64,000 bases of DNA, from the NCBI GenBank assembly GCA_016748015.1, contig JAAOMT010000436.1, forward strand, positions 1,941,511-2,005,510. Reading direction: 5' to 3'. Made by a program: the position numbers and the translations under genes. Below the pieces are notes generated by a model. It did no database searches and was not told where the DNA came from. It saw nothing but the letters and a program-made list of their open reading frames with translations. Source of the stretch: Geosiphon pyriformis uo1 (lineage: Eukaryota > Fungi > Glomeromycota). Of the stretch, positions 33,427-55,575 are shown one piece after another. The first letter of the stretch is position 1. The number at the start of each line of letters is the position of its first letter.

Positions 33427-34058
33427 TGTTATGAGTTGGAGTAACAAGCTAATGGATAGCAAGGGAGAATAGAATTGTAAGGTGATGAAAGGAATCAAAG
33501 AAAATTCAATTTTAAAGAGCAAATTGAATAAGTATGGATTCAATATGTAAGATTAGTCTCATAAAATATCTTAGTCACTATACTTTTCAAAAGATAACCA
33601 GGAATCTGAAGATAGAGGAATAGTCTGTACTGTCAACAAATAATTATGCCTAGTATAATTCTATGCCTTACATTAGTGCTCTTAGCATTCAATATCAGGT
33701 ATCAGATGTACTCTTTAGTCACATTTTATTGAATAATTTTCAAATGCTGCAATTACACATTTCAGGAAAAAAGTAAGGAATAACCAACAAATGATCTTTT
33801 ATTTCAAAATGTTCAGATATTTGAAGATAAGAAAAGGGAAATTTAGTAATAAAAGAAAGATTAAGATGAAAGTTGTTATTTTATTTCTTTGATTTCTTTG
33901 ATTTCTATATGTTTTTCTACTGCTAAGAGATTTATTACTTATATAGCTATCAAAAAGTGGTCAATAATTACTTTCTAAAAATAGAATGGCTAATTTATAT
34001 GACATCAATGGCTAATACATGTGATAATTAATAAGAAGTATAAGTTTCAACCATAATA
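33427..34058 (-). repeat. 3' LTR of family C element
   Basis: Direct repeat of 41131-41775; PPT complement (tcattctctccaaaaaaa) immediately adjacent. Confidence 0.92.
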
Positions 34059-34720
34059 TCATTCTCTCCAAAAAAATTGAGCTTTGACAAAATCAAGCTA
34101 TTCATAATATAATCTATTTGAAGAGTTTTATTTAACTTAAAGCTAACTAGTTTGTTGAAGTTTTTTGTGGATAGAGTATATAATATTTGAAGTGAAATGA
34201 GTTTTGTATCCAAAAGTCTAAATCTTTGTATTAGAGTTTTGGCTCTTTTAGCAATAGTTAAAACTCTTGGAACATTTAACTGTATAATGCCCAAAATTTC
34301 TGCTTGTATTTTTGAAGTTGTTTTTTTCATGAGTTTCATATCTTCTATAATTTTACCAAGGCAACTATAGAGTTCTAATTGCCTTCTATATGACAAGTTT
34401 TTGTCTATAAGTAAGATTTCTTGGAGTGTTTTTCCAATTATGCTGGAAGATAAGAGTATAGCTGCTGTTATACTTTCCAACAGATATTTATCCATTTTAT
34501 TACCAATTTTTTCTCTTTTGGTAGTAGTTTTCTTTGGTCTAATAACAGTATGTGTTCCATTGTTATTAGTTATGGTGGTTTGTTTTTCAATGGTCAAAGT
34601 AGCATTTGGATAGTTTTTAATCCAATACTCATGGAGAATATAGAAAACGTTTTGAATGTTTGATCCAGAAAATAATTGTTTATGTTGATTGAAGATATCT
34701 CTGTTTTGGGAATAATGCAT
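34028..34720 (-). CDS. ORF3 of gypsy family C (230 aa, unknown function, intact frame)
   Basis: Uninterrupted ORF between integrase and PPT that runs into the LTR. Homologous to ORFs at 47459-48094 and 51053-51760 and to the decayed copy at ~20690-21400. Confidence 0.7.
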   Translation of the reverse strand: MHYSQNRDIFNQHKQLFSGSNIQNVFYILHEYWIKNYPNATLTIEKQTTITNNNGTHTVIRPKKTTTKREKIGNKMDKYLLESITAAILLSSSIIGKTLQEILLIDKNLSYRRQLELYSCLGKIIEDMKLMKKTTSKIQAEILGIIQLNVPRVLTIAKRAKTLIQRFRLLDTKLISLQILYTLSTKNFNKLVSFKLNKTLQIDYIMNSLILSKLNFFGENDIMVETYTSY

Positions 34721-37700
34721 TTATTTATACTTGATTTTTGCTGATCATTTGAGTCAGTATTACCACAACAGACAACCAATCAGATTGTTTATGATATTTC
34801 TTGAATCATATATCATAAACAAGATGATCATTGAAGATTGTTTCAGATTGATCTTAAAGAATATAAGAACCATTATTTAAAACTTTGTTGACTAAAAAAA
34901 GTCCTTTCCATTGGCTAGAGAATTTATCACTATAGACATTGTCTCTATTTAAACAGTATTCTAATACCAAGTCACTAATACTTAAAAAAAGTATTTTATA
35001 GATTTTCTTTTTCTTAAGCTTTTTTTAAAACTGTTTTATCTTTTCAAAAGCAATTATTTGTGCTTCTATCAAGGAGTCAAGAATGGTATCAAGTTTTCTT
35101 TGCAAAATGTCTTTGTAATTTCCTATTGTGATTTCTTTAAAGGATATTGTTTCAATGTTAGTTTCTATTGATAGTATTGTTATGTGTTCATAGAACAGAT
35201 AAAAAGATTCATAACTTGTTATGTTATAATTTACAGTTTTATAAGCAAACAAAGCTGAAGGCAGTACTTTGTCCCATAAGTTTGTTTCTTTACTGGTTTT
35301 GGCTAAGGTTTTACATAGTGTTTTATTAAAACATTCTACTAGATTATTTGTTTGGGAGTGATAAAAGAAAGAAAGTTTATGACATATTCCTATTTTTCTA
35401 CAAAGTTTTTCAACCAGTGTACTTAGAAAAGCTCTTTCTTTATTAGATAAAAGTTTTTTAGGGCAGCCATAATGGCAAATGATATCTTTATAAATGAAAT
35501 TGGCTATTGAGACTGCTGTTTGGTTAGGAATAGCTCTTGTTTCTACCCACTTTGTAAGATATTCAGTAGCTATAATAATGTATCTGTTGCTATCAAGAGT
35601 TATTATTAAAGATCTAACAACATCTATACCAATTCTGTCAAATGATTAACCAACAGAGATTGGATGGATATCTTTTTTGCAATTAGATTTGCTTTTTCTT
35701 TGGCAGATGTTACAGGTTTTGATGTATTCAGCAATGTCTTTTTCCAAGATAGGCTAATAATAGCAAGCTAAAGTTTTCTGAATTGTTTTTGTTTTTCCAA
35801 AGTATCTAGCTAATAAGTTAGTGTGCATATTGTATATTACAATTTCTTTTTCTTTAAATCTGATGACTTTCTAAGGGTAGTTAGAATCTTTTTTATTTCT
35901 TTTATATAGCTGGTTCTGGCAAATTAAATAGAAATTTGATTGTTTGCACAATTGTTCTCTTTGTTGTCGAGTGTATTTTGGTGGGCATTGTTTTTTACCC
36001 AAAAATTCCATTAAGGCAAAGTAGTTGTCCAAGTCCATTATTATGTTTGTTTGTAAAAAAGTTACTAATAATTAAGTTAGTTTGGTTTAAGAGATTGTAC
36101 TATTACTAGATGGTAAGTTTAGAGAGAGCATCAGCATTTTAATGATTTGCTTTTTTGCAGTATTGAATATTATAGTTGAATTTATCCAAGTAGAGTATCC
36201 AGCAAATTATTTATTTGTGTTTCAGCTTTTTTTTATTGTGCAGCCAAACCAAAACTTGATGATTTGTTATCACTAAGAATTTTGCACCAAGAAGATATTG
36301 ATCCCAATAACTAGTAGCCCAAACTACTACTAAATATTTTTATTCAATAACTGAATAGTTTTTTTTTGCTGGTATAAGGGATCTACTGGCATATGCTATG
36401 GTATATTCTCTGCCATTTTCATCTTTTTGTGAAAGGACAGCACCAAGTCTATAGCCAGATGTATCAGTGTAGAGGATAAAAAGTTGGTCCAGATTAGGTT
36501 GTTTGAGAATGAGTTCAGTAACAAGTTTTTTCTTTAGAATTTCAAAAGCTTTTTGTTGATGAGTGCCCCAGTAATAATTGACATTTTTTCTAAGTAGCTA
36601 ATTGAGAGAAAATGTGATTTTGGAGAAATTCTTGATAAATTTGTGATAGTAAAAGGCCAAACCAAGGAAAGAGCATAGTTCAGAAACATTTATTGGTTGT
36701 CTGATGTTCTGAACTTTTTCAACTTTAGCTGGGTCAGAGAAGATTTCATTTTTTGTAATAAAATAACCAAGAAACTAGGTGGATTGGCATCCAAAAAAAA
36801 ATTTGATTGGATTAATCTTGAGGCCAGAATTTCTGAGCAGATCAAAAATCTTTTGTAAGTATTCAAGATGTTCATCTCAGGTTTTTGAGTAAATCATTAT
36901 GTTGTCTAAGTAGACCAGAACAAAGTTTTTTTTTACTGATTTAAATACTTTGTTCATTAGACATTGAAAGGTGGAAGGGGCATTGGTAAGACCAAAAGAC
37001 ATGACTGTGAATTCATAGGTGTCATACTTAGTAATGAAAGCAGTTTTCTTTCTGCTTTCTGGATCCATTTCTACTTGCCAGAATTCAGCAGTTAAGTCAA
37101 TAGTTGAAAAAAAAGCAGTACCATTGAATTTGTTTAGCATTGCATTAATTTTAAGGAGTGAGTATATGTCTCTTATAGTGATAGCATTTAGTTGATAGTA
37201 ATCAATACAGAAGTGTAGGGTTTCTCCTTTCTTGGATATCACTACAACTGAAAAAGCTTATTCACTCTTGGTTTTTTGTATGAATCCAAGATTTTTCATC
37301 TGGTTTATTTCTTTTTTGATAAACTTATCATTGTGTTGATTGAATTGATAAAGCTTTAAATAGATGAGATGAGTTTCTTTTGTGATGATAGTATGTTGTA
37401 TTACATGAATTCATCTAGGAGTATCACCTTCTTTTAAAATAACTGGGCTATTTCTAGCCAACAGATTTTTAATGTCCACTTTTTTTTCTTCAGGAGAAGA
37501 CTCTTTTTGTTTTACAACTAGTAATTGGATTTTAGATGGTTCACTCTCAAAGAACTTCTGTATTTCTTTTAATTCTTCTTTGAATATCAAACTAATTAGC
37601 TTCCAATCTTTGTAATAGATTAAACAAGACTTGCATTTATCACTAGGAGAATACAAAAATTTATTACACCAGCACTTAACACAAAAACTATACTACCAAT

Positions 37701-38782
37701 AACTGTATTTTGTTTCTTGCTAGGTTTTCTATCAAAGGTTTTTCTGAGGATATCATAATAGGGCCAACAGATCAGCTTGCCATTTACCATAATTTTTTTT
37801 TTGTCAGCTTTAATATTGTCCAGTGGTTTGCCATTGCTGGTAAAGATAGTATAGGTAAGTTTAGCAGTTTCTTCTTGTTCTTCTTAATTTTTTTCTTTAT
37901 TGCTCTCATCATTATCTGATTCATCTGATTGTTTTTCTTCTTGGTTTTGCTTGGCTACTGGAGAGGTTGTCTAATGATGGCATTTAACCACAATGGGTTT
38001 CTCACCACATCTGATAATCAGTTCACAGAGTTCATAATTAAGCAAGGCTTTTGCTTTCTTGAGTCATTCATTGCCAACTATTATGGTGTATTTTTTCACT
38101 TTAGATACTTCCATGTCAGTTTCAATGCTGATGCTATTAATTTGGACAGAAACAGCTTTAGCTATGCCCAGATTTTTCTTTTTATCACCATGTATGTTGG
38201 TCATTGGTCTTGTGGATGGTTCATCAATCTTTCTACCAATTGCTTCTAAAAAGTGTTTGGCAATGATGCTAACAAATAATTTACTGTTCAGAATCAGATC
38301 AATAAAGTAACCAGCTACTTGGACTTTACAAATGAGAGAGGTAATATTGCTGTTGTTAGCAAGTTCAGCTTGATGTGAGCATTTGTTAGTTTTTGGTGTC
38401 TTTTTTTTGGGAATCAAAGATTTGTGAAGGTCTTTTCTAAATTGGGGATGGATCATTAATTGGCCAAAGGTAATGTAAGCAGGCATTTCCATAAGATCTT
38501 TGACAACAGAATAGAGACCAAATTTTTGTACTATTTTTGGGGGTTCCAACTTTGGAGAATTCTTGAAAACTTTGGTTTTTGGTGGCTTATTGTTATCAGC
38601 AGTTGATTTGGATGCTTTGTTTGGGTCCAGAACGAAATCAATCTTGGCTTTTTTTTTCTTTTTTGTTAATTCAGAGATGTTGATTGCTAGTTTATCTATA
38701 TTATGGTCATTATCAGTTAGATTAAAAGCATAAAAGAGGTTTTTTTCTGGTTGGCTTGTACTTTCACCCTTTGGAGATATGC

Positions 38783-39520
38783 TGTTACAAGTGATTATTT
38801 GGGGTCTTAAATTAAATAACAAAACCTGTAACTTGGTGCTCAGAAGTTATTCACAATGATGATGATCTGAAAGTTTTGGTTGAGTTCTTTGTATAATGAA
38901 CAGAGTTTCAATAGGTGTTTATCTGTAGCTTTCTAGAATCACAATTCTGTCAATTTCTTTCTTTAGCTTAATAGCCAGTACTTCTCTGATAAGTAATCTG
39001 TAATTTTTTTACATGCTCTACTCACTTGCAGGGGTTTTTTACCAGGCAATTTTTGATGTCAATAACTCAGTGCTTTAATCTTTTAATTAATTAGTACATG
39101 ACAAAAGAAAAAAATAAATAAAAGAAATAAAAGAAAATAAAAAAATAAGCCAAAGCAATAAAGTTAGTATCTTGTCAATAGTCATAATCAAGAGCTATTG
39201 TTCTAGTGTAATTAAGTATCAATTACTATTAACATAAAGTGTTAATAGTAAAGAGTGAATTTGAGATAGTAATTAATTAATTATTTGATATTTGTAATGT
39301 GGAAGATTGATTAAATCAAATCTAAACTAAAAAATCTGTCTTTTTCTACTTCTAATGCTACCAATATATATACATAATTGAGATTCCTTAATTTCTCAAT
39401 TTTTCATACCAAGAATCCTGCAATTTCTTTGAAAGGAATCCTGAAATTCCACATTTACTATGGCTATTTCTGATTGGCTAATTTATATGCTAATATACTT
39501 CATATATTCTATGAGTAACA
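38783..39520 (-). repeat. Solo LTR (family D, 738 bp) nested at the gag/pro junction of element C
   Basis: TGTTA...TAACA termini. Flanks ATGC/GTAC are both one G>A from GTGC. The empty site is visible in the second C copy at ~25345-25385. Confidence 0.85.
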
Positions 39521-41107
39521 GTACCTACCAGTTTAAAGGCTAATAAACAATGGCTTCAACTAAGAGATCTTTTTCAAAAAAATTAATGTTGACATGATTG
39601 GGTTTTTGGTTGGAGACATTATTGTTGATAATTCTGTTGTTTTAATTGTCATTGTTTCTGGGAGCTGGAGAAGACAAGAGAGAATTGTTACAATTTTTGG
39701 ATAAATGTCCAGTTAATTCACAACGATAATACACAAGTGGGTCATGATTTTGTTGTTTTTAATAAGGGGGTTGCTGGAGTTGATTAAAATGGGGTTCAAA
39801 TCTGGGTTTTTGAGGTTGTTGATTCTCTCTGACTGCTTGGGCTAAGAGTTCCAGTAACTGGGCAAAATTAGCTGTGAGTCTATTTATTAACTGTTTATTT
39901 GGGTCTTGAGTTTGGACAACAAAAGAGGTAACAGCCATTTGGAGAACAGGAGCCATAACAGGAGCAGAAGCAAAAACTGGAAGTGTGAATTTCAAGTGCA
40001 TCTTTTGGTTGTTTTCAATTTGTTGGGCAAGTTCAATAGCCATGTTCATTGTGGGGTTGTTTTTCAGGACCAGAAGGAACCAAAGAGCATAGGACAAATC
40101 TGTTCTCAATCCTTTTGTAAAGGAATAAATCTTTTGTTCTTCTGTCCAGTTTCTTCCAGAATCTACTCTTTTAATTAACTTTCTAATGGCTTTGGCATAT
40201 TCAGTTACCATTTCACCAGGACCTTGAGTTTTTTTTTCTAGTTCTATGTATCATTTAGATATCAAGATAGGAGTTCTAAATTTCATTTCAAACTGAATAG
40301 TAAAAGAAGTGTCATCTTCTCCAGCATTTGTCAGTGTCTATCTAATAATTCTTTGCTAAGCATTGGCATTGGTTTCTTGTAAAAACCAAGTAGCAGGAGA
40401 GCCTTGAAGATAGCCACCAACAATTTGAATTATATATTCATTATCATATTGGTTAACTGTAGTAGCTCTTTCAAAGTCATCTAACCATTTAATTGGATCT
40501 TGTGCATTATTTTTAAACAAAAGTAATAAAGTGTTGTTTCTTTTTCCCAAAGCAGTTTGTATGTTTTGGAGGGCAATTAGAATGTTCTGTTGTATAAAAT
40601 TATTAGTCATTAGTTCAGGAGTTACTGTTTGAATAGAATGATCTGAATTACTTGAAAAGAAATCAAAAACAGGAGCAGTTTAATAGCTTTCTTCTTTTGT
40701 TTTAAGAAAAGTTTCAGTTGATTGATGGGCAGCAATCTAAGTATAGATTTGATGATTCAGATATTCGAAATCAGGAGACTGTTGTTAAAAGATTATGGAA
40801 TATAAAAGCTGATTGATGCTGTTGTTTCTTTTTTCAAAGTTGTCTTCAAAATAAGCTTGATCAAAGTAATAAGTTGTATAGGCTGTGTAGGTTTTAGCTG
40901 AATGCTTGTTCAGAAACCAGTTCCAAAAGTCTTAAAATTGTCTACTGGATTGTTTTTCAATGGGAAAGCAAATCAAGCAAGATGGCAAAAGATTGAGTTT
41001 AATAAAGTCTAGATCATTTTTGTTGTGTGCTTCAAAGTATTCTTCTGATTGTTGTGGCAGATATGAATAATTACCCATACAATAGAAAACAGAGTGGATT
41101 TTGACAA

Positions 41108-41124
41108 CCTCACAGAGAGCACCA
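41108..41124 (-). promoter_or_regulatory. Primer binding site TGGTGCTCTCTGTGAGG (probably elongator tRNA-Met)
   Basis: Lies 6 nt inside the 5' LTR and begins TGG (complement of tRNA CCA). A near-identical site is at 61431-61447. Confidence 0.8.
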
Positions 41125-41130
41125 TTTTTA

Positions 41131-41775
41131 TGTTATGAGTTGAAGTAACAAGTTAATGAATAGCAAGGAAGAACAGAATTATAGGGTAATGAAAGGAATC
41201 AAAGAGAATTCAACTTCAAAGAGTGAATTAAATGAGTATGGATTCAATGTGCAAGATCAGTTTCATAAAATATTTCAGTTGCTATACTTTTCAAAAGATA
41301 ACCAAAAATCTGAAGGTAGAAAGATAGTCCATACTATTAACAAATGATCATGCCTGGTATAATTTTATGCCTCACATTGGCACTTTTAGAATTTAATATC
41401 AGGTATCAAATATACTCTTCAGTCATATTTTATTTAATAATCTTCAAATGCTGCAATTACACATTTCAGGAAAAAGATAAGGAATAACCAACAAGTGATT
41501 TTTTATTCCAAAATGTTTAAATATTTGAAAGTAGGGAAAGAAAAATTTAGTAATAAGAAAAAGATTGAGATAAAAGTTGTTATTTTATTTATTTGATTTC
41601 TTTGATTTCTACATGCTTTTTTTACTGCTAAGAGATTCATTACTTATATAGCTATCAAAAAGTGGTTAATGATCAGGTTAATGATTACTTTCTAAAAATA
41701 GAGTGGCTAATTTATATGATATCAGTGGCTAATACATGTGATAATTAATAAGAAGTATAAGTTTCAACTATAACA
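41131..41775 (-). repeat. 5' LTR of family C element
   Basis: TGTTA...TAACA; direct repeat of 33427-34058 with one extra ~13-bp unit. Confidence 0.92.
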
Positions 41776-41779
41776 ATAT

Positions 41780-42060
41780 TATAATTAAGACCAGATTTGA
41801 CTAAAAAAATTTCTTTTTCATTATTAGAATATTTAATATTGTTTATTAAAACTTTTTTTTTTAAGAGAAAATATTATTAACAGAATCATGAAAGGCTCTT
41901 TTGAGTAGTTTTTTTTAGACATATTACTACTTAAAGTAATCTTTAAGTTTATTACAAAGGATTATTAGCTTGAAAAATATTAAAAAAAATACAACTAGAA
42001 AAATTAAAAAACTTTTTTTTTGAAGAAAAATATTCTTTGAGAAATTTTTTTTTATATTTT
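41780..42060 (-). mobile_element. 5' remainder of the LINE split by element C
   Basis: The ORF1-like sequence continues across the ATAT TSD from 33426; the right boundary is approximate. Confidence 0.55.
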
Positions 42061-42452
42061 TAATAATATATATGTATTTATTAATTAATTTGACTTTTTT
42101 TTACAAATTATAAATATTTATTTTAATTAAAAAAAGAATAAAGCTTAATATTTTTTTAAGAAATTTTATTTATATGAATTTTAATAATATATACAGTATT
42201 TTTTTCAATTAAAGCAAATTATTTAAAAGTCACTAAATTAATTTAATAAGTTACAATTCAATTAATAAAATTTTAAAAAAGCTAATTATACAATTGTTTT
42301 TAAAATATTAACTGAAATTTTTTAACAATTATTTTTTAAATTTATATTTTTTTAATTAGTTGTTTTATTTTTTTATTTTTTTATTTATTTAACAAGTGAG
42401 GTTCAAACACAGCCTAATACTATACATTAATAAATTAATCTAAACTAGGTAT

Positions 42453-43462
42453 TGTTACTGGAGGTTTTTGGTCTCTTTTCTTAAATGTTGTAAATGTCTG
42501 TTGGTTGCAAATTCATATTTTCTAGAAGTAGTTGAACCTTCAGTACTGAATTTATCTTCAAATTATTTCCTATAATTTGAACTGCTGGGTTTATAAGTGA
42601 AATGGCCAATTCCTTGCCAGTTACTTTATGTAGTTATATTGTAGTAAATGTCAACTCTTTCCCAGGAATTGCTCATCTGGAAGCTTACTAAAAATGTGTA
42701 GTTACTTTGCTGTGAAAGTTAACTCTTCTACAGGAATCTTGTCTGTAGACTACCCTAATGATTATAATAAAAAAATAAAAAAAATATAAAAGAAATGTAA
42801 AAGAAATTGAATTCTGTCAAGGGAAACGTTTTCTATCCAGGCCTGGAGTCACTAACAGTTTACTGAAATTGGTAGTTAATCAATTTCAAAACATTAATTG
42901 GGTTTTGGGGATTTTCCAAGTGCAATAATTAAAGAATTTGGTTTTTCAATTTATTTGATATTTATTTCTTTTTGTGTGTGTAGGAATGGTTCTAAGTGAT
43001 AAATCTAAAGTAAGATACATTTTCTTGAAGAGAAAAGCTCTTCTTTTATACAACTTGTTGTAGTACTAATCTATGAACTTGCACTTTTTCTCTTTGCTCA
43101 AATTTCGGCGAACTAAAGATATATTTTGATGGACTACAAGTTATTTCGCTGAACTATTGATTAATTTGGGTGAACTATTCATAATTTCGGCGAATTTCTA
43201 TAAATTTCGGCGAATTTTTTATAAATTTCGGCGAATTTCTGTAAATTTCGGCGAATTTCTGAATGTTACAAAGTTCAGGGTATTGTGTAATTTGATCATC
43301 CTACTTTTTGTTATACTAATTGGATTATTTAATTGAATCGTGATATGTGATAATTGATTAAATAATAAATGATAATTTGAAATGATATTAATATACTAAT
43401 TAATTATAGGAATTATAAGGGTAATTTCATGCTAATTAATAGCTAAAATTCTACTGGTAACA
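42453..43462 (-). repeat. Solo LTR, family B (1010 bp)
   Basis: TGTTA...TAACA termini, perfect GTAT TSD on both sides, direct repeat of 50103-51072. Confidence 0.93.
43101..43260. repeat. ~20-bp tandem array (8 units) with TTCGGCGAA core in LTR-B U3
   Basis: Units start near 43101, 43121, 43141, 43161, 43181, 43201, 43221 and 43241; five have an intact TTCGGCGAA. Confidence 0.9.
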
Positions 43463-43487
43463 GTATGAATTATGTATTTTTTACACA

Positions 43488-43510
43488 TGATCAGCCACTC
43501 AAGCTGATCA
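43488..43510 (-). other. LINE 3'-UTR stem-loop
   Basis: TGATCAGC-cactcaa-GCTGATCA, a perfect 8-bp stem with a 7-nt loop. Decayed versions occur in the other LINE tails. Confidence 0.65.
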
Positions 43511-46500
43511 AGACAACAATAAGCACCTATGTAAACAAAAACAGGGCTCCCAATATCTGAAAAAAATAAACAAGACCTACAAAAACCAAAACCAACACCA
43601 AATGTCTCATTAATTCCTAGCAATTTAACCATACCAGCAGAAAACATTGAAAACAGCCCAGAAACTAAATCCAAAACTGACTTATCACATGGTATTAGCC
43701 TATTTTTTTCCATAAAAGCATGATGTTTAGTACAGACCAACCAAATTTTTTTCCTAAAAGCAAGACAGAAGTCATACATAAAGTCCACAATCTTCTGATC
43801 TGCAATCTTAGAATTTTTGAAAACAGATACAGTCTTCTGAAGCCAATCTTTAAAAACAAAGTTCTTGTAAAAAGCTGTATATACTGTAGCATTCAAAACA
43901 CAAGAGAACAATAATTGTGACACACATAAAAAAGAAAGGAAGAGACCAAAAAGTGCATACCAAACAGTCATATGGATATTCAACAACTAATAATGAACAG
44001 AAACATCAACCATACAAGAAAAAGCATGATCAGAAATCCCAACATTGCCACAATACAAACACAACACACTAGAGTAACACTTGTCATATAGATACTTCTA
44101 AACAGCAACTGGCAATCAACAATGCAAAGCTTTCATAAAGTACATACAAGTGCCAGCAATAATCTCACTAGTAAAACCAGCAGCCATATGTGAGTCAGAA
44201 TGTCACACTAAAAATAAGCTAAGCCAATCAACATCTAAGAACAAACTATTATTTAACATTCTAGATTCAGAACCAATTTTTTAGCATGTATGATGAATAG
44301 ACCAAAAGATTCCATAAACAAAATATCTAGAATTACCAGAAACAATACTACCTTCAGCCAAGACACAATGTTCCTTCAAATTGAGAAGAAGACACCAGGA
44401 AAAAAGAGAAATATTATTGGCAAGTGCATTAGCACATTTGTTACCAAAGATGCCTAAGTGACCTTTAACTTTGTACTAGCTAACATTTAAATTCTTTTTT
44501 CTAATAATGTTTATGATGTGCTGACACTTAACCCAATACTGATTCCAAAAATCTGGATGTATCAAACCCAATTCTGATTTGCACACATCCAGAGCAGCTT
44601 GACTGTCTGTAAAAAAGTGAACCAAGCTAAGAAAGGGAACAAATTCAAAAGTCAATACAATAGTCTGCAACTCTGCCAAAGTAGAAGACAACAAACCAAA
44701 AATCCTAACCCCTAAACCTAAGTTCATATTTCCAAAAAAAACTGTTGTACTAGTTCTTACATTAGCACTTCACAAGTTCTTCAGAGATCTGTTTATATAG
44801 ATAGAAAGACTATTAGCCATAATATCTAACAAGTGACTATAAACATGCTTGAACTTACTAGACTTCAAAATACTTAAAAGTCCAAAACTATACAAAGAAA
44901 AAGAGCCAATAGAAAAAAAAGCTACACTATTAAGAAAATTAATAAAAATCTTAAATCAATCAGAAACAAAACTATGCAGGTCCAATCTTTTCTAATGCTT
45001 GAAGATTTTTCAATTAAAGATAGCATTCTTCCAATTATAAAGCTGCTTCATAAAAGCTATGCCATATTACTGAAGTAAAGAGAGAAACCTAAAGAATATA
45101 GACTCATCAAACACAGTTAACATAGGAGTTCCATTTTGAAAACAAAAAGAATTGACCATTGGACCACTTAAGGACAAATTGTAACCAAGAAAAATACAAA
45201 CCACACCTGCCAAAAAATTATTAGATAAATTGACTTTAATGTGAGCTAAAGAATTCAAAAGATGAAGTGGATGCCAACTCAGAGTTTATAAGTCAAAAGA
45301 TCTGTATAAAAACAAACAACCCAAAATTCCAACAGAGTTTACAAAACACACAACAGAAGCCACTTTGCTTTCAGTCTAGACCTGCTTAAAAGTTTTCAAA
45401 CTATACAATAAAGGATGGTAAAGTGCATTACTGGGAAAGTCAAGTGGCAGACCAGATTTCAATTTCAAGCTCTTGTAAATTAAAGCATCCCACTTTTCAC
45501 ATACTTTAACAGGAATAAAGCTGAACTGCATCTTGTATTTAACAATAAGATAGAAAACAGTTGACATTAAATATGAGAATTGTTTATCTGAAATGGTTTT
45601 TTTTAGTATAAGATTGGCAAAAAATCTGATATCCAAATGTGTCTTAGCCAAACTAGACTTCAACAAACTTTTGGTAGACAAAAAAATACCCAGATAATAA
45701 TAAGACTCTTCTTTTCTGACAATGGAAATAGACAAACCACTAATTAACAAAGAAAAGCATTCAACTTTGCAATTGATAGAAATGACTACTGTTTTGTCAT
45801 TATTAATGAAAATGTTATTAATTCTAAAAAATTCATTAGCAATATTGAGAATATGTTGTGTTATAATTTAACTATTATCAATTTAGATCATATTATCAAC
45901 AAAAGCACTAGCAGCAAAAAAAAACATCAATTCAGTCTGAAATTCCACATAACCAGTTCTAGCAACAAAATGAAAATTCAACCTATATCTACACACACTT
46001 TTCTGTCTCTTGACTTCACATAAAAGAAGATCATAAAAAATGCACCAAAAAAGAAATAAGAACACCTTCTCTTAGTCCAAACTATCATGCACTTAATATC
46101 CATCTAACAATCCAAAATTAGTTATAATTTTGTTAACACAATCATTGTGAATGTCTCCAAAAAACCTAATGAACTTGTCACATATTTTTATTCTAACCAA
46201 GCTTTTTTTAAGATACTCTTAATCAACAGAATTGTAGGTCTTTTATATGTTTTGCAAAACCAGTCAGAATTCACAGTTCTTTTTTAAAGCATTCTTAACA
46301 ACCAAACCAATGGCAAAAATAGAAGATTGCATTGTTATACTCTTTAAAACTAAGAAATTGTTCTCTTATAAAACATCAAAAGTGCTGCATGCCAAAGAAA
46401 TCCTATTTAAGAAAATCTTGAAAAGGATTTTGCAGGTAGTTTCAATTAAAGCAATAGATTAGACATTCATAAGAACTTCCTTCCACTCATATGATTTGGG

Positions 46501-46590
46501 AATTATTAAAATTCAAGCTTCCTTCTAAGCATTGCAATTTTTTTAAGAATTTTTTTTTATAGTTAATAAAAATATAATTGAGTTATATAT

Positions 46591-47445
46591 TGTTACAGAT
46601 GATTAATTGGGGTCTCAATGCAAATAACAAACTCATAACTTGGTGCTCAATTGATATGATAATGTTAATTTCTGAAGATTGTTTATATCTGAAGGTTTTT
46701 GTTGATTGAGTCCTTTGTATAATAAACAGAGATTCAATTGTTGTCTTCTCAGTAGCCTCCTAGAATCGCAATTTTGTCAAATTTCTTTCTCAGCATAGTG
46801 GCCAGTAATCTGGCAGAGATGCTCTTCTGGTAAGCTATTCTTTAATTCTCAATGTTATATCCTTCCTTTGAGGTCTTTTACCAGACTATCTTTGACATCA
46901 ATAACTCAGTGCTTTTACTTTTCAATCAATTAGTCAAACAACAGAAATAACAAAAAATAATAATAAAAGAGAACAAAAAAAATAAGCCAAGACAATAAAT
47001 GTTAGTATCCTATCAATAGCCATGATCAAAAGCTATTGTTCTAGTGTAATTAAGTATTAATTATTATCAAAATGAAGTATTAATAGTGGGAAGTGGATTT
47101 GAGATATTGAATGATTATTTATTAATATTTTGTGATGTGGAAGATTGCTTAGATTAAATCTAAACTGAGAAGTCTGTCTTTTCTGCTTCTAATACTACTG
47201 TTATATATACCTAATTTATGTTCTATGAGATTGCTCACATTCTTGAATGATGTGTTATGATTTCTTGAGCAATGCTTACATTGCTAAACAATATGCCCTA
47301 ATTTTCTAACATTACTTTACATTGCTGAGCAATGTGCTGTAATTCCTAATATTGTTCTATATTGTTAAACAATGTGCTTATGTGTTAACTACTACTCTCT
47401 TATTGGTCTGCTATTTTTTTATAACTGTTTTTTTTATGAGTAATA
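46591..47445 (-). repeat. 3' LTR, family A
   Basis: Direct repeat of 61450-62304, followed by the PPT complement ttatctccttctttt. Confidence 0.93.
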
Positions 47446-47458
47446 TTATCTCCTTCTT

Positions 47459-48094
47459 TTAATATTGAGCTCTGTTAAAATTCTCATTTTGAATTATGTT
47501 GAATACTTCTTTTTCAAGTAGTGTTTGTTTTACCCTACTTTTTATTTTTTCAATTTGTGAGTTGTTTATTCTTCCCTATTGGTTGATGATTATTGTTTCC
47601 ATGTTAAAGTGTAACAATACTTCTGGGTAGTTTTGAAATATAGTGTGTAGTCAATAAATAATCCTAATGTGTAATGTCAAGTTTGTTTTTTTTCTAATAA
47701 TGTCTTCAATGTTTCAGATTATTTTTTGATTGAAAATTCTCTTGGCTTTGTCAAAATATAACTTTTGAATATCTACTTTTTGTCCCAGTTAATAGTAGCA
47801 GTATGGTATTAGAAGTTGGTTTATTCATTGGTTCCAATTTTTTTTCATTGGTTTTTCTGATGGAACAATGATAGTTGTCTTTCCAAAAGTGTCTTTTACT
47901 TTCTCTACTATTTTATCTGACCAGTTTATTAATTGTTTTTGTGGTCGCTAGTATGGTGTACTTTTCCCTTTTTGTTTGATGTTTTAATAACAAATTGTTT
48001 GATTGTTGATAATAATTTTCATGTTTACTTGCTGTTGACTTATGGCCTGAAACAATTGTTGAACTAAAGTATAAATATAGTCTGGTATTTCCAT
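47459..48094 (-). pseudogene. ORF3 of gypsy family A (212 codons, several transition-derived stops)
   Basis: Manual translation: MEIPDYIYTLVQQLFQAISQQQVNMKIIINNQTICY*..PYCYY*LGQKV..IRIYY*LHTIFQ..INQ*GRINNSQIEKI. No frameshift; not in the ORF track in this frame. Confidence 0.7.
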
Positions 48095-50102
48095 TTTTTT
48101 TTGTTGCTTTTGTTGCATTGACCATGTCTTTATATACTCTTTTGGTTTGTTTAATTTAATGTGTTTGTTTCAATAATTATAATTGGTTCCAGATCTTGTG
48201 GAATTTCATTTGGTTGAACTAGTATTCTCTGTACTCCTAATTGTAGAATATTATTGGTGGATGATAATATTATATAGTGATATGATTTTAGTCAATTACC
48301 ATGTGCTGCTTTGGCTAAGATTTTGTTGTTTCATTTTAATTTATAAGTTCTATTTCCTAGAATTTTTTCTATGTAAAATAATTCATCTCATTTGGTGTCA
48401 AATTTTCTACTCCATTGTTTTTCCACTTTGGTATGATATAAAAGTACTTTGTCTTCAATCTTGAATTCAACTGGTTTATCTGGTAGTTGGTTATTGTGTC
48501 TTTCTTTTTGTTTTTCTTGTGATTTTTGGATGTTATCAGCTGCTTTTTACCATTTGTTTTCTAGCATTTCCATTAAGTCATATGTTCTTCTTAACAATGT
48601 TTCTTGGAAATTATCTTCTGTTATTGGTTCTGTTGAATATGTATTGACTTTTATCTCAACTGGTAATATTGCTGTTCTACCATATATTAATTCAAATAGT
48701 GTTGCTTGTGTAGTATCTTGTTTCATTGTCTAATAAGCAAATAATACTAATGGTATGAATAAATCCCATTCATCTTGGTTTTTTTGGCTGATCTTGACTA
48801 TCACTTCACACAATATTCTATTGAATTTTTCGACTAGTCCATTGGTTTGTGAATGATATGATGATGATAATAGTCTCTTTATTCCAAATCTTTGACTCAG
48901 TTTTGTTAATGTTCTATTCACAAAATGAGTTCCTTGGTTGGATAATAATTTTTTTGGACATTTGTGTCAACAAATCAGATCTTAATAAATGAATTCAGCA
49001 ATGAATTTTGCATCCACTCTTTGAATTGCTTTTGTTTCTGGCTATTTAGTAAAATAATCCATGACTACTGCAATATGTCTGTTGTCTTTGCTGGTAATTG
49101 TTAATAGTCTAACTAAGTCAATTCCAATATAATTAAATAATTGTCCTACTTTTATCAGTCTCAATAGTTTACTGGATCTGGTTTCTTCTCTTCTTTAACA
49201 AACATCACAATTTTGAACATATTAAATGATATCTGGATACATTAATGGTCAATAGTATCTTTTCCTGGTTCTTTTCATGGTTGCTTCTTTATGAAAATAT
49301 CCTGCTATTGGATCTAAGTGCATGTTGAACAATATTGTTTCTTTCTCTGGTTCTGTAATTACTCTGATTGATTGATTTGGATTTCTTTTGTTTTTTTGGT
49401 AAAGTATATTTTGATGGTTGATAAAATATTTTGATTGTTGTTTTATGTTATTTTGTTTTTTTTGAGATAATTTCTCTTTGAACAATTGGATATTTATATA
49501 ATATTGAAGTTGTTAGTATTTTTGTATATTCATCTTTTTGTTATATTTTTGAGTTAAAATGTTCTTAGATTTGTTTCATTCTTGACAATCTGTTAGCATT
49601 TCCATTTTTTTTTCTTTTTTTGTAATGTATTGTATAATTAAATGGTGAAAGTTCTATTTTTCATCTAACATAACAATTATCTCCAAATTTTTACTTCTGG
49701 ATTGAAGTCAATTCTTTGTGATCAGTATAAACATTAAATTTTTGACTCAAGTATTCTTTCCATTTGATGACAGCCTAATAGATAGCTAAGTGTTCTAATG
49801 CTAGTGTTCCATAGTTTCTTTCAGCTGAACTTAAGCTTCTATTGGCATAAGCTACTGGGTGTTCTTGTCCATCCAGCTCTTTTTAAGATAATACAGCTCC
49901 TAATGCTTGGCCAGATGCATCAGTAGTAATGATGAATAGTTTGCTGTGGTTTGGATAGATTAATACTGAAGCTTGAATAAGTTTTCTTCTTAGTATGTTA
50001 AAGGCTTTTTGTTGAATTTCAGTCCATTCATATTTGGTGTTCTTTGTTTGAAGTTGATGTAGTGATTGAGTTATTTTGGAAAAGTTTTTAGTAAAATAGC
50101 AG

Positions 50103-51072
50103 TGTTACCAGAGATTTTTGGTCTCTTTTCTTGAATGTTGTTAATGTTAATTTGCTGTGAATTCACATTCTTAGAAAGTAGTTGGACCTCTAATAACTGA
50201 ATTTATTTTCAAATTATCTTCTATAATTTGAACTGCTGGGCTTATAAGTAGAATGACCAATTCCTTGCCAGTTACTTTATGTAGTTACATTGTAGTAAAT
50301 GTCAACTCTTTCCCAAGAATTGCTCATCTGGAAGCTCACTAAAAATGTGTAGTTACTTTGCTGTGAAAGTCAACTCTTTTACAGGAATCTTGTCTGTAAG
50401 CTACCCCAATGATTGTGATAAGAAAAGAAAGAAAAATAAAAGAAATGTAAAAGAAATAAGATTTTATTAAAGGAAACGTTTTCTATCCAGGCCTGGAGTC
50501 ACTAACAGATTATTAAAATTGGTAGTTAATCAATTTCAAAATGTTAGTTGTGTTGAGGAAATTTCAAGTATAATAATTTAAAGATTTGGTTTTCGAATAT
50601 TTAATTTTTATTTGAATATATAAAAGGTGATTTGTTTTAATTAAGATATCTAAAGTAAGATGCTATGGTAAGATACTATAAGAAGATACATTTTTTTGAA
50701 GAGAGAAGCTTTTCTTTTATACAACTTGTTGTAATACTAATCTTTGAACTTGCACTTTTCTTTTTGCTATAATTTGGGTAAACTAAAGATACATTTCGGC
50801 AAACTACAAGTTATTTCACTGAACTATTGATTATTTCGGCCAATTTTCATTAATTTCGGCGAATTTTAACTATGTTAAATGGTTCAGGGTATTGTGTAAT
50901 TTGATCATCTTAATTTCTAGAGTACAAATCGGATTATTGATTGAGTAATGATATTTGATAATTTGATTAAATAATAAGTGATAATCGAAATAATAATAAT
51001 ATATGCTAATTAATAATAGAAATTATAAGGGTAATTTCATGCTAATTAATAGCTAGAATTCTACTGATAACA
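50103..51072 (-). repeat. 3' LTR, family B
   Basis: TGTTA...TAACA; matches 42453-43462; followed by the PPT complement taatctcctcctcaag. Confidence 0.93.
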
Positions 51073-51760
51073 TAATCTCCTCCTCAAGACTGAGCTCCGT
51101 CCAAGTCCAAGTACTATCTGTAATGTTAAGATAGTGGTCCAAGATAATTGAAGTAATCTGGTCTGAAAATTGTTGAAATTTCAGTTCTGTGAGCTTTCCA
51201 ATATATTGAATCTTCATTGGGTAGAGTATTGGGTTTTGCAGGACGTTTTCACAAGTATTGAATAAATTATAGAGTCTAAATGCTGCTCTAAGTTTGTAGC
51301 AAGTGTTTGTTGATTCAGCTGTTGTCTTGAATTCATTGTGAATTTGTTTTTGTATAGTCTTAGAAGTAATGTTGGTTGTTTTAAGTTCTAGTTTTCGTTC
51401 ATAAAGTGTTTTTCCAATATGAAAATATCTATATATAAGAGTATGTTCATTGTTCTGTTTATTAAGAAATAGTAGAAGTTTTTGTTATATTGTAGCATTT
51501 GGTGGAATGTCAATAGAAGCAAATAAAAAATTTTCTTTTAGTGCTTGCTTCAAAAGTTCTGGTAATTGATTTCCAGAGTAACTTTTTGTTTTTCTTTTAT
51601 AGAGGTGATAATTATGAGAATTATTTACTACTGGGGCTGTGGTTTTTTTCTGAATGTAATTAATTTGACTTCTATTAATCGTTATAGATAAGTCAGGAAG
51701 TGTTTTCAAAGCTAACATTAATTTTTGGAATATTTGTTGAATATTTTGGGGAATAATCAT
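51053..51760 (-). pseudogene. ORF3 of gypsy family B (236 codons, one internal TAA)
   Basis: MIIPQNIQQIFQKLMLALKTLPDLSITINRSQINY.. then, past a single stop at 51485-51487, ..IYRYFHIGKTLYERK..AAFRLYNLFN..KIQYIGKLTELKFQQF..ELSLEEEIMLSVEF*, ending inside the LTR. Confidence 0.75.
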
Positions 51761-54700
51761 GATAAAAAAATGACTAACTAATAAACAAAATTTGAAAAAG
51801 AATAAAGAAAATTATTTTTGGGTATAGGGTTTTTATTTGTTTTTGGGTTTGAATGTTTTTAATTATTTTACTATTTTTGATTTATGTTTTGTGTATTTTA
51901 AAGGGGTTTGTAAAAATGTTAAATTAAGTGTTCAAGTTTGGTTGTTGTTTTATTATAATTATTGGTTCTAAATTTCGGGGAATATTTTCAGAATTAACTA
52001 AAGAGGAATGTATACTAATTTGTGGAATTAATGGTTCAGGATTGTTTCTGGAATAATAGTGTTTCAATCTATTTCTATGTGCAACTTTTGCTAGTACTTT
52101 GTTATTAAGTCTTAACTTGTATGAGCTATTGCCTAAAATTTCATAAATATAAAATGGTTCATCCCATTTATGTTCAAATTTTCCACTCCATTGTTTTTTA
52201 GTCTTAGTTCTGTGTAAGAAAACTTTATTTCCAACTTTAAATTCGTTGGTAATTGGTGACAGTTTGTTGTTATGTTTTTTTTTGTAAGGCTTAGAAGTGT
52301 TCAATATGAGTGGCTGCTATGTGTCTTTTTTCTTCCAATGTACTAAGGAAAGTATCATTAATTAGTTGTACTGGATATGTTTTCATTGTGAAATTAATTG
52401 GTAATGTTGCTGTTCTTCCATAAGTAAGATCAAATAGTGTGTGTTTTATAGTATTTTGTTTTAGTGTTCTGTATACTAATAACACTAATGAAATAAAGAT
52501 ATTCCATTCCTGTTCAAAATTTGTTGAAACTTTGGCTAAAGATTCACACAATGTTCTATTGAATTATTCTATAAGTCCATTTGTTTAAGAGTGATAAGAT
52601 GATGATAGAAGTCTTTTGATATTAAATCATTCACAAATTTTTTGTATCAAGTTGTTCACAAAATGTATTCTTTAATCAGATAAAAGTTTGATTGGACATC
52701 TATGTCTACAAATAATGTCTTCATAGATGAAATTTGCTACTGATTTTGCATCTGCTCTTAGAATGGCTCTAGCTTTAAGCCATTTGGTAAGATAATTTAC
52801 TGCAACTGCAATATAATAATTTTCTTGGGTTGTAATAGGTAATGGTCCAACTAAATTAATTCCAACTCTGTCAAAAGGTTGTCCAACTTTGATTAGATTT
52901 AAAGGTTCTGTGGGGTGAGTTCCTTCTCTTTTTTAACAACTATTACAAGATTCTACATATTGTTGAATGTCTTTTTACATGAGAGACCAAAAATAATGTT
53001 CAAGTGTTCTTTGAATTGTTCCATTTTTTTCCAAGTGTGCTGAAAAAGGATCTGTGTACATGTTGTATAAGATTGTTTCTTTTTTATTCTTTTGTATTAA
53101 TTTGAGTGATTGCTTTGGATTTCTGCGATTTTTGTAATAGATTTTGTTATGGTGTATGAAATATTGTTTGGATTGGTGTTGTAATTAATGTTTTTTATTT
53201 GAAAACCAATTTTTTGGTATAGTAAGAGTTTCTAAATAGTTTTTAAGATTGTTGTAATTTCTGGGATCTATTGTTGTTTTGTTATTTGTTGGTAGGTTGG
53301 TAAGTTGTAGTGAATTTATTGGTGTTATTAATCTTGTCTTATTCTTAAGAAACTATTAACATTGGTGTGTAATTTTTCTGGTTTGTGGTGTACAATATAT
53401 TTGTAATCTGCTAAGAAATCATTTCATTAAGATTGTTTAACACTTTGTTCAGTTTTTTTTTTATTGAGCCATTTGAGACCAATATTGTCAGTTATAATGT
53501 TAAATTCTTTTCCATTCTTTAGATATTGTTGAAAATATTTAAGAGCCCAAATGACTATGGTAGCTTCTAATTCAGTTAAGCCATATTTGAGTTCTGTTGG
53601 CTTGAGTGTTCTATTGGCATAGACAATGATTTGTTTTTGGCTATTTTCATTTAATTGTAATAAGATGGCATCAAATACTATATGTGAGGCATTAGTGACT
53701 GAGTAAGCAAGAACTGGAGCTGTTGTTAGTTTTGTTTTGAGAATTTTAAAAGCTTTTTGTTGTTCTTTAGTCCATTAATATGGCACGTTTTTGTTGATAA
53801 GATAATTGAATGGTTTGGCAATTTTTAAGAATCTTTTTATGAATTTTTGATAATAGGAGGCTAATCCTACAAATTCTCATAGCTCTGTGGTATTTTTGGG
53901 AGTTTGAAAGTTTTTGACAGCACTAATTGTTCCAAGATTTGGTTTGACTTTATCTTTGTTAACAATGTGTTCAAGAAAGATTAAACTTGTTTTTCTAAAG
54001 TAACATTTCTCAATGTTCAACTTTAATCCTGCTTTCTGTAATTATTGAAAAACTTTTCACAAGTGAATGAAATAAGCTTCAAAACTTGGTGAGTATACAT
54101 TAGTGTTATCTAGATAAACAACTACTGATTGCTATAAGAGTCTTTTATATACAACATTCATGAGTTATTGAAATGTTGCTGGTATATTGCAGAGTTCAAA
54201 AAGCATAACATTAAACTCATAGTTCCCTCCTTGAGTGGTAAATGCTGTTTTGGGTCGATTTTTTGGGTTCATTTTGACTTGCCAGTATCCACTTTCTAAG
54301 TCTAAAGTTAAGAAGAACTTGGCTTTTCCTAAGACATCTAACATATCATCAATTCTTGGAAGAGGGTAGACATTTCCAATTGTCATATTGTTGAGCTGAC
54401 AATAATCTACACAGAATCTGATTTTTCATTTTTTCTTTTTAACAAAAACTACTGATAAGGCCCAAGGATTTCTTGATAGTTGAATCAATCTGTTATTAAG
54501 CATTTTTTGGATCTTTTCTCTGATAAATTGGTGGCTAGCAGATGGAACTCAATAGGCTTGTTGTTGTTTTGGTAGAGCATCTTCTGTGTAAATCTGATGT
54601 TGAACAATATCAGTTTTTCCAAGGTCATTGTTGTTTTTTGCAAATATATCTGCAAATTCAGCTATCAGTTGTTTCAATTGTCTTTGTTGTTGGGATTCTA

Positions 54701-55151
54701 AGGAATTCATGTTGATTTGAGAGAGTTTTTCTTTCAACAGATAATAGTTTTCAGTAGTAGGAGTAATGTTTGAATTTGAAAGTAAAGTATGTCTTATAAT
54801 TTCGATGAAATTAGAGACAATTTGAGGGTTTTTATTTTGGAAGATATTGCTGTGTATAATTTCAATTTTTAATTTATTTAATAAGACAATAGAGTAATTA
54901 TTGGGGTTGTAAAATATAACTCGAAATTTTTTTATTCCTTTGGAAATATAAACATTTGAGATTGAGATTTCATGCTTTAAACAGATTTGTTCATTAGATT
55001 CAAAGATTTGTTGGGTAGTGGTGGGTTTTGAGCAAGTGTAAATTTCGTGATATTCTCCAAAAAATAAAATAGTAATTGGTTGAAGAAGTTGAAATATCTG
55101 GTGAGATTTATTCTGTACATTGAGAGCTATGTTTACTGGCACTGTAAATCG

Positions 55152-55575
55152 TCCAATTGAACCAAAACCTTGAGTTCTTCTTTCACTTTTTCCCAATTGT
55201 TCTCTGTTCTTAACTGATTGTAAACCCAAAATGTTGATTAAGGGTAAGTAAATTGCTTGGGCAATTTTTTCAGCATGTTCAATCCTGAATGGTTTGTCTG
55301 TTTTATTTTGCAACATAATGGTAATGTTTTCATTATATCTTGCATCTATGACTCCTCCTTTGACATTGATTTCTTTGCTTGCCAATAATAATTGGGAAGC
55401 AATTTGTACTATTGTTTCTGGTGGTATTTCAAAAGCAATTCTAAGGTTAATTTTGGTTAAGGATTTTGGTTGAAGAACCAAAGTATTTTTGCCAAGATAT
55501 CTTAAATCATATCTTGTATCAATTTCATGGACTTTTTCTGGTTTTATTTTTTTTCCATTGTTGTCAAAATATTTG
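55152..55575 (-). pseudogene. dut: dUTPase domain within pol of gypsy family B
   Basis: Recognisable trimeric dUTPase motifs: PEKVHEIDTRYDL (=AGYDL), IASQLLLA (=RSSLA), GGVIDARY (=GVIDxDY), EKIAQAI (=DRIAQ), ERRTQGFGSIG (=RGxxGFGSTG). In frame with PR upstream and the pre-RT segment downstream. Confidence 0.9.

Follow-up and report, generated by a model that had tools for sequence, protein, structure and literature searches.

A conserved third open reading frame between integrase and LTR in Ty3/gypsy retrotransposons of Geosiphon pyriformis, a candidate LTR-binding regulator

The window analysed here, a stretch of 64,000 nucleotides from Geosiphon pyriformis, contains decayed Ty3/gypsy LTR retrotransposons of the families A, B and C, identified by their LTRs, primer-binding sites, PPT and the order gag-PR-RT-RH-IN (Table 1). 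The primer-binding sites of C and A are nearly identical. Between the 5′ and 3′ LTRs of C, 74 transitions and 3 transversions were counted.

Table 1. Retrotransposon features in the window, by position.
Feature	Position	Strand	Remarks
Second C-type ORF3	20687..21327	-	Heavily decayed; fourth ORF3 copy in the window
C 3′ LTR	33427..34058	-	88% identity to C 5′ LTR
ORF3-C	34028..34720	-	230 codons, 0 stops
Integrase of C, separate ORF	34857..36038	-	Found by tblastn with L001 integrase; own ATG 36038, 67 nt past RNase H stop, other frame
C gag-protease-RT-RNase H	36106..41050	-	Decayed; stop after RNase H
C 5′ LTR	about 41131..41775	-	Followed by primer-binding site
Second B-type LTR	42850..43462	-	
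Second B-type LTR array	43102-43257	-	6 near-palindrome sites, four spaced 20-21 nt
A 3′ LTR	46591..47445	-	89% identity to A 5′ LTR
A 3′ LTR U3 array	47280-47373	-	3 palindromic 13-mers ATTGCTNAGCAAT, period 40-41 nt
ORF3-A	47459..48094	-	211 codons, 7 internal stops; ends at PPT
Integrase of A, separate ORF	48150..49533	-	Own ATG 49533, 31 nt past RNase H stop, other frame
B LTR	50500..51072	-	
B LTR array	50793-50865	-	3 sites of near-palindrome ATTCGCCGAAAT
ORF3-B	51053..51760	-	235 codons, 1 stop
Motif RAGCTCART + PPT ahead of LTR	51072..51097	-	Conserved in cis
Integrase of B (SH3 tail), separate ORF	51924..53271	-	Likely decayed start (ATA) 53271, 56 nt past RNase H stop, other frame
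B gag-protease-dUTPase-RT-RNase H	53328..58890	-	Single reading frame; stop after RNase H
A 5′ LTR	61450..62302	-	
A 5′ LTR U3 array	62139-62232	-	3 sites, same as in A 3′ LTR

In the usual Ty3/gypsy layout the integrase is the C-terminal part of the Pol polyprotein. The integrases of the window elements and of a metagenomic element, L001, lie instead outside it: in all four (A, B, C and L001) RNase H ends in a stop and a separate integrase starts 24-67 nt further on, in a frame that differs from the upstream one in A, B and C and is the same in L001. Since the integrase is an ORF of its own behind this stop, the elements are three-ORF elements with the layout gag-PR-(dUTPase)-RT-RH / IN / ORF3, a second departure from the textbook arrangement. 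The sequence-only reading had not remarked on the separate integrase. The integrase tail of B, the one tail scanned, carries an SH3 domain, and no chromodomain was found in it. Searches of the openly readable literature, main texts only, listed no account of an integrase encoded apart from Pol in Glomeromycotina.

The placement of ORF3 between integrase and PPT/LTR in A, B and C, proposed from the sequence alone, was confirmed, with all three on the minus strand of decayed gypsy elements. ORF3-B crosses the PPT and overlaps the LTR by 20 nt, and the end of ORF3-C overlaps the 3′ LTR by about 30 nt. Base shuffles of each ORF3 contained about 18 stops on average; stop counts as low as those observed had a probability of 0.0012 for ORF3-A and occurred in 0 of 5000 shuffles for ORF3-B and ORF3-C. 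The C frame had been called an intact ORF of 230 aa, which must be corrected: a 1-nt deletion near 34660 puts the family start out of frame, and the first ~20 residues are supplied by a chance upstream ATG. The family frame starts near 34684 and is 218 aa long, and 20 of 20 C-family members of that length begin M(N/S)NYFLDQNIQ. The two C-type copies share 77% DNA identity (134 transitions, 20 transversions). In A and C, TATA-like words, common in such AT-rich DNA, lie about 40 nt ahead of where ORF3 starts.

The RAGCTCART + PPT motif is also present at 47472, at 34084 and in L001, and is translated in different frames by different ORF3s. An acidic C-terminal "activation tail" was considered and rejected: the tail cannot be taken as a sign of such a domain, because it is dictated by a motif conserved at the DNA level and read in two frames.

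ORF3 had been regarded as an old accessory gene under selection, and both its conservation and the codon-position bias bear this out. The 24 listed differences inside ORF3-B fall at codon positions 1/2/3 as 10/1/13 (P 8e-4); 13 are synonymous and 11 are not, a crude dN/dS of 0.43 (P 0.03), below the value near 1 expected of an unselected frame. We are highly confident that ORF3 is a real selected gene. It diverges faster than its neighbour, with 22-29% identity between the same elements against 50-53% for the integrase.

Direct BLASTP among the A, B and C proteins gave no significant match (E values of 0.097, 0.005 and 0.009, the second out of register), so that the homology of A and B needs intermediates. 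Through intermediate families the two are linked at E 1e-9 to 1e-18. The B profile retrieved 35 proteins from 1.84 billion representatives, among them P0268 (7e-16), P0270 (5e-12), P0271/2 (1e-9) and P0273/4 (5e-5, 4e-4), and A matches P0271 (E 3e-18) and P0274 (2e-17). On these matches the ORF3s of A and B are almost certainly homologous. For C, local HMM searches and hhalign were not significant, and the three-way similarity claimed earlier is supported there by a global test against an A/B/D/E profile minus its last 22 columns. C scored z 4.8 and 5.0, which none of 200 column shuffles and none of 200 block shuffles reached; seven unrelated proteins gave z of at most 1.8 and three C proteins 4.5-5.6. 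ORF3-C is therefore likely a distant homologue of A/B ORF3. The blocks aligned by eye hold in register for A and B, whereas the second half of C takes a different register in the new alignment.

A metagenome scan reduced 218 pattern matches to a single locus, L001. This independent, nearly intact element carries ORF3 in the matching position, as an intact P0270 after RT-RH, IN and SH3, and the P0270 frame extends through the PPT into the LTR. Sequence comparison thus places ORF3, as a conserved feature, in at least six families and an independent metagenomic element. Among the matches listed, all 240 database relatives are G. pyriformis "hypothetical proteins". Counted by family, the database proteins number 130 for C and 209 for B, and a protein search with A found none among 226 candidates. 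Of the sequencing runs, X1 covered 30/30 bins, X2 gave 6 contigs matching the LTR, the 3′ half of ORF3 and the integrase tail, and X3 gave no matching contigs. Viral contigs contained no relatives for either profile, and tblastn of plasmids with P0187 gave no matches. The top Atlas match was an unnamed Mucoromycota cluster (0.94, under the tool's recognition mark). Together with the database relatives this supports a tie to Glomeromycotina/Mucoromycota; the sequence-only reading had pointed to an expanded hypothetical-protein family of arbuscular mycorrhizal fungi. Its word "unannotated" holds for function and fails otherwise, hundreds of copies being filed as host hypothetical proteins. Several hundred of these G. 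pyriformis entries are transposon ORF3 copies, not host genes. Searches of the openly readable literature, main texts only, listed no account of the ORF3 family.

Judged by hydropathy, the absence of a signal peptide and a TM segment, and with it of an envelope, was borne out in nine of nine proteins (maximum Kyte-Doolittle 19-mer 0.7-1.52), which contain 0-3 cysteines. The protein is not generally basic, as had been thought: the window copies have a pI of 9.3-9.8 and P0126 of 7.1, and the intact metagenomic homologues are acidic (pI 5.4 and 5.9). The basic charge of the window copies is partly G>A decay. An AlphaFold model (pLDDT 80; core 86-96; linker 41-51 below 50) is soluble and mostly helical, in keeping with the helical protein suggested earlier, and the predicted architecture comprises an N-terminal helix and beta hairpin, a disordered linker and a helical core. 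A model from B only was poor (pLDDT 49), and fold searches with it gave nothing clear. With the pLDDT-80 model, Foldseek returned no matches at E<=0.001 in PDB or BFVD, and neither run of the VIA structure search gave Z>=5, which does not make the fold new.

Pfam, PHROG and NCBIfam gave no ORF3 match above cut-off, PHROGs returning only unnamed families (best E 0.0012), and no significant family or fold match tied ORF3 to a retroelement domain already described. The commonest Pfam match of B members was DUF1016_N (PF17761; 7/50, best E 0.015), a candidate proposed from the motif ahead of the Pfam tests. Its alignment to ORF3 is nearly gap-free: a Y-x-IG helix, a second helix, a turn and a helix ending RLY-x-F lie in register, as they do for ParB/KorB/Spo0J, which overlap the ORF3 core weakly in structure. 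The P0187 score is 14.6 bits, far under the cut-off of 32.8. With hhalign, a 16-sequence DUF1016_N alignment fell in the right register with a score within shuffle range, and when blocks were shuffled 12 of 150 shuffles reached the score; single YhcG gave no match. C gave no DUF1016_N signal (z 0.3). ORF3 differs from these proteins in having no nuclease or ParB CTPase domain and in its extra N-terminal helix-hairpin and PY linker. In the list of 50 VIA rows, four entries are helical domains of the ParB/KorB type or similar ones (Spo0J, Z 3.9, rmsd 4.8, 92 aligned; Raf1, Z 3.9, rmsd 4.9, 88 aligned; KorB, Z 3.3, rmsd 5.1, 96 aligned; ParB, Z 3.3, rmsd 3.1, 59 aligned), tied with unrelated helical proteins, and the top row is a designed protein (Z 4.7). 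Matches at such a level can mislead, because a stronger one, to FtsQ (50/71 members, best E 7e-5; PDB E 0.008), is almost surely false: the matching stretch is all-helical at pLDDT >90, and the corresponding FtsQ region contains beta strands.

A motif resembling the PY-NLS consensus R/K/H-x2-5-PY (given in PMC2408616) lies in the linker, where pLDDT is <50. It occurs in six of eight single proteins (A, P0268, P0270, P0271-3) and 40 of 88 B copies, and is missing from P0002, P0274 and all 39 C proteins. The U3 arrays of A and B (3, 3, 6 and 3 sites, shuffle means <=0.12) are built from motifs each missing from the other family's LTR; an array is loosely present in L001. The C LTR has no palindrome array, its single palindrome comparing with a shuffle mean of 2.4-2.8. 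In the second B-type LTR 11 of 12 CpG lie inside the near-palindrome array. Their survival there does not have to reflect shielding by a protein, because residual CpGs outside B LTRs also lean to TTCG/CGAA (18/41, background 0.30). Any anti-silencing would be incomplete, since the elements are heavily CpG-depleted.

From these features ORF3 is rather probably a nuclear nucleic-acid binder. The best explanation, to which we give a probability of roughly 40%, is an LTR-binding activator or anti-silencer comparable to foamy-virus Tas or plant VANC. The protein, for which a soluble, helical structure is predicted, would enter the nucleus by the PY-type signal in its linker, or in C by a plain basic signal. 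It would bind the U3 palindrome arrays of its own family through a ParB/KorB-like helix-turn-helix, the second helix following the conserved G/K-K-T-N turn, and would keep the element transcribed by activation or by shielding it from CpG methylation. For the transactivator or anti-silencer idea, already raised in the sequence-only reading, the U3 arrays, the PY-NLS-like motif and the faint helix-turn-helix resemblance are circumstantial support. Against it, the arrays could be host-factor sites, family and fold searches gave no significant match, the intact homologues are acidic, and C combines an LTR without a palindrome array with a protein without a PY motif. Rather doubtful is the full version, a tricistronic Glomeromycotina gypsy clade in which a ParB/KorB/DUF1016-type helix-turn-helix of bacterial origin co-evolves with U3 operators and serves its own family as activator or shield against CpG silencing.

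A nuclear signal would fit equally well an accessory protein acting on RNA, Rev- or CERV-like, in export of unspliced genome RNA or downstream translation of IN and ORF3. With three ORFs, expression has to rely on subgenomic RNAs or reinitiation; in B a pyrimidine tract with TAG lies about 20 nt ahead of the ORF3 ATG; and CERV of Cer1 is a precedent (in the accessible text of PMC10309623). This is unlikely in that no acceptor-like site precedes ORF3 in A or L001, no RNA-binding family matched, and the family-specific U3 arrays would be left unexplained. Just as unlikely is an integration cofactor that would replace a chromodomain, tethering IN or cDNA ends to chromatin or importing them. Such a role would be consistent with the integrase ORF directly upstream and the SH3 tail of B, and with a helical core that binds DNA and bears a nuclear signal; the much faster divergence of ORF3 relative to IN speaks against it.

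Conflict proteins typically evolve this fast, and a particle or restriction protein, whether capsid-associated or controlling copy number, could be imagined, as could one that acts on RNAi or another host pathway. No capsid or RNAi-suppressor family matched and the conserved PY motif suggests a nuclear site of action, which leaves this improbable. That the ORF3s are frames left open in strand-biased DNA, neither selected nor related to one another, as the weak pairwise A/B/C scores might suggest, is very improbable in view of the open-frame statistics, the intermediates, the intact L001 copy, the codon-position bias and the confident fold, and is already refuted for A and B. Least probable of all is a role as an env-like protein or in movement between cells, for which only the position speaks and against which stand hydropathy never above KD 1.52, the few cysteines and the soluble helical model.

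Additional ORFs form a known class in LTR retrotransposons, but hardly any of the fungal ones has been given a function. Those that lie in sense downstream of pol and ahead of the 3′ LTR are termed aORFs-3S in the accessible text of PMC7264820, and that of PMC2864245 lists fungal Gypsy elements with an "add. ORF" of unknown function. ORF3 resembles the aORF-3S class in its orientation and its place after pol (A, B, C, the second C copy and L001) and in being kept in many copies with unknown function; it differs in forming a new protein family without env-like features, next to an integrase that is a separate ORF too. The dUTPase of B lies between protease and RT, as in the dUTPase-bearing fungal Gypsy elements of PMC2864245, those described in its accessible part being chromodomain elements of Dikarya. 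CERV, from the LTR retrotransposon Cer1 of C. elegans, is likewise a nuclear accessory protein unrelated to env, the nuclear role of ORF3 being putative, but as described in the accessible part of PMC10309623 it acts in RNA export and is made from spliced mRNA.

Foamy-virus Tas, according to the accessible text of PMC3185757, shares with ORF3 an accessory gene adjoining the 3′ LTR, an accessory ORF reaching into the LTR and binding of U3 motifs, proposed in the case of ORF3. The window elements differ in their fungal host, the lack of env and the putative status of both an internal promoter and DNA binding, and no Tas-type Pfam match was seen at E<=10 or E<=1. VANC proteins are anti-silencing proteins of VANDAL transposons (accessible text of PMC5735166; PMC13547354). 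The proposed likeness lies in a protein specific to its family, whose tandem target repeats vary from one related element to the next; VANC belongs to plant DNA transposons and is related to MAIN, and ORF3 gave no such match. CpG methylation of transposable elements in the host group is shown for Rhizophagus in the part of PMC8647823 available, and LTRs make up 41.2% of the G. pyriformis genome according to that of PMC11952901. A new family, a confident model, the intact L001 copy and candidate sites make LTR-element activity in a CpG-methylating host testable. If the LTR-binding regulator is real, a fungal LTR retrotransposon would possess a Tas/VANC-like circuit, which may lie behind the LTR burst of Geosiphon.

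The three frames of about 210-235 codons that the sequence-only reading had placed between integrase and the PPT in the divergent gypsy families A, B and C (ORF3) were borne out in position, all on the minus strand. The A frame, with 7 stops, was more open than chance in base shuffles (P 0.0012), and the B frame with 1 stop and the C frame with none were matched by 0 of 5000 shuffles. The B and C frames cross the PPT into the LTR, and the A frame ends at the PPT. The C frame had been described as an intact ORF of 230 aa, which is to be corrected: in the window copy a 1-nt deletion lies close to the start, and the proteins of this family are 218 aa long. Relatives were found for C (130 matches) and B (209 matches), and for each the 120 of 120 listed were Geosiphon pyriformis hypothetical proteins, none identical to the window copies, which points to this species or a close relative of it as the likely host. 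The ORF3 observation is real.

A single frame of B runs from gag through protease, dUTPase and RT to RNase H. The corresponding frame ends just past RNase H in 4 of 4 elements (A, B, C and L001, a metagenomic contig with a nearly intact gypsy element), and integrase begins 24-67 nt further on, in a different frame from RNase H in A, B and C, with its own ATG in A, C and L001 and a likely decayed ATA in B. Since integrase stands separately behind the RNase H stop, ORF3 is truly a third ORF. B showed an acceptor-like tract of pyrimidines, the leader of A is A-rich, and A and C have TATA-like words; no expression signal for integrase and ORF3 was common to the elements compared. The B dUTPase lies between protease and RT.

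Coordinates of features in the window (L001 in contig coordinates)
Feature	Position	Remark
ORF3, A	48094-47459	minus strand
ORF3, B	51760-51053	minus strand
ORF3, C	34720-34028	minus strand
RNase H stop to integrase start, A	49567-49533	
RNase H stop to integrase start, B	53330-53271	
RNase H stop to integrase start, C	36108-36038	
RNase H stop to integrase start, L001	772-799	
dUTPase, B	54549-55577	
Cys/His-rich insert, B	55600-56500	~300 codons, before dUTPase
Shared PBS, A	61446-61430	
Shared PBS, C	41123-41107	
Host-gene island	~12.5-17.5 kb	CpG-retaining, between repeat blocks
Host TLC/LAG1 gene (ceramide synthase-like)	15781-17307	intron-containing, inside the island
Non-LTR element fragments	43460-46560; 62600-64000	with RNase H-like region
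A-like LTR pieces	28214-29735; 3285-4145	
A-like LTR copy	3959-4051	A-type palindrome array, 40-nt period
B nested inside A	58890-50100	permuted: gag...ORF3, LTR, PBS, leader; A without most of its RT

The proposal of an accessory gene under selection was upheld. Contigs of sequencing run X1 over the B 3' end (n = 25,707) spanned 30 of 30 bins, and 24 of the 40 differences listed (215 further ones lie beyond these) fell in ORF3-B, at codon positions 1/2/3 in the ratio 10/1/13 (P 8e-4). Their crude dN/dS was 0.43 (P 0.03). Both the codon-position counts and this ratio come from tool-chosen differences and mix in neutral decay after insertion. That a 230-codon frame stays open across families at 22-37% identity leads to the same conclusion.

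A common ancestry of the three ORF3s, also proposed earlier, is probable. Direct comparisons are weak. The B-family profile retrieved 35 proteins from 1.84 billion representatives, 6 of them distant: 2 metagenomic proteins and 4 from the further G. pyriformis families D and E. A matches D and E (E 3e-18 and 2e-17), which links A to B. P0270, the ORF3 protein of L001, occupies the same position and likewise runs through the PPT into the LTR. Local tests of C against other ORF3s failed (best score 6.2 bits, with the 99th percentile of the shuffles at 5.4; probability <3% in hhalign). C joins by global profile alignment only: without the PPT-encoded tail z was 4.8-5.0, reached by 0/200 column and 0/200 block shuffles, and the core alone gave 2.1-2.4 (3-4/150 shuffles), with 7 unrelated control proteins at z <=1.8. 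A pre-PPT DNA motif is common to C, A, B and L001, the PBS is nearly identical in C and A and different in B, and the C integrase is the most distant (39% to L001 vs 50-53%), so a barely detectable C ORF3 is expected under descent; it is probably homologous to those of A and B. The A/C PBS resembles the elongator tRNA-Met 3' end.

No transmembrane stretch was found in ORF3 proteins, as the sequence-only reading had it, and the predicted helical character agrees with an AlphaFold model (73 sequences, pLDDT 80) of a helix (7-21), a beta hairpin (25-38), a disordered segment (41-51) and a helical core (pLDDT 86-96). An overall basic charge was not supported: pI was 5.4-9.8, with the top values in decayed copies. 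The core has three conserved motifs, namely Y-x-(I/L)G, the turn (G/K)-K-T-N, and R-L-Y-x-x-F. No library searched gave a significant match. DUF1016_N matched 7/50 B members weakly (best E 0.015); in global alignment its z was 4.9 over the whole length, 3.2 over the core and 1.6 against block shuffles. ParB, KorB, Spo0J and Raf1 domains overlap the core at a weak structural Z of 3.3-3.9. DUF1016_N and ParB/KorB domains may be kin, for which a literature search gave no confirmation. An FtsQ match outscores DUF1016_N, yet is almost surely false, and the DUF1016_N and ParB/KorB leads therefore carry little weight. The linker motif R/K/H-x2-5-PY, present in 6/8 single proteins, 40/88 B copies and 0/39 C copies, fits the PY-NLS consensus (PMC2408616); C copies have a basic stretch there. 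Non-LTR pieces like those in the window are joined to ORF3 in gene models P0245 and P0272.

Save for the host-gene island, the window is AT-rich and CpG-poor (observed/expected 0.21) and consists of nested, decayed transposons. LTR pairs differ almost entirely by transitions (transitions:transversions 74:3 in C, 93:3 in A), consistent with methyl-cytosine decay; CpG methylation of TEs is reported in Rhizophagus (PMC8647823). Two A-like LTR pieces, placed back to back, form a long inverted repeat with arms of 356 nt (83%), and the permuted B may represent either a one-LTR circle or the outcome of recombination.

The A U3 holds three 13-bp palindromes at 40-41 nt spacing and the B U3 up to six near-palindromes, four at 20-21 nt, each motif missing from the other's LTR. 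Counts were far above shuffles, which shows clustering and not function, the motifs having been picked by eye from the LTRs tested. L001 has a third repeated motif in its LTR, and C short direct repeats only. In one B LTR, 11/12 CpGs lie inside the array, but the CpGs that survive elsewhere (window 19000-64000) lean to the TTCG/CGAA context of the array as well (18/41 outside B LTRs, background 0.30), possibly a methyltransferase preference.

The simplest joint reading, with a probability of about 0.4 and every functional step inferred, is that ORF3 would be a protein of the nucleus that binds DNA sequence-specifically and has its own U3 as target. The main alternatives are a role in RNA export or translation and one as an integration cofactor; we hold each of these to be improbable.

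LTR elements with additional ORFs on the 3' side have been described as a class (PMC7264820), and such an ORF has been shown in fungal elements (PMC2864245). The literature searched gave no account of the ORF3 family or of the split integrase. The DNA binding proposed for ORF3 at its own U3 would be similar to the action of Tas (PMC3185757) and of VANC (PMC5735166).
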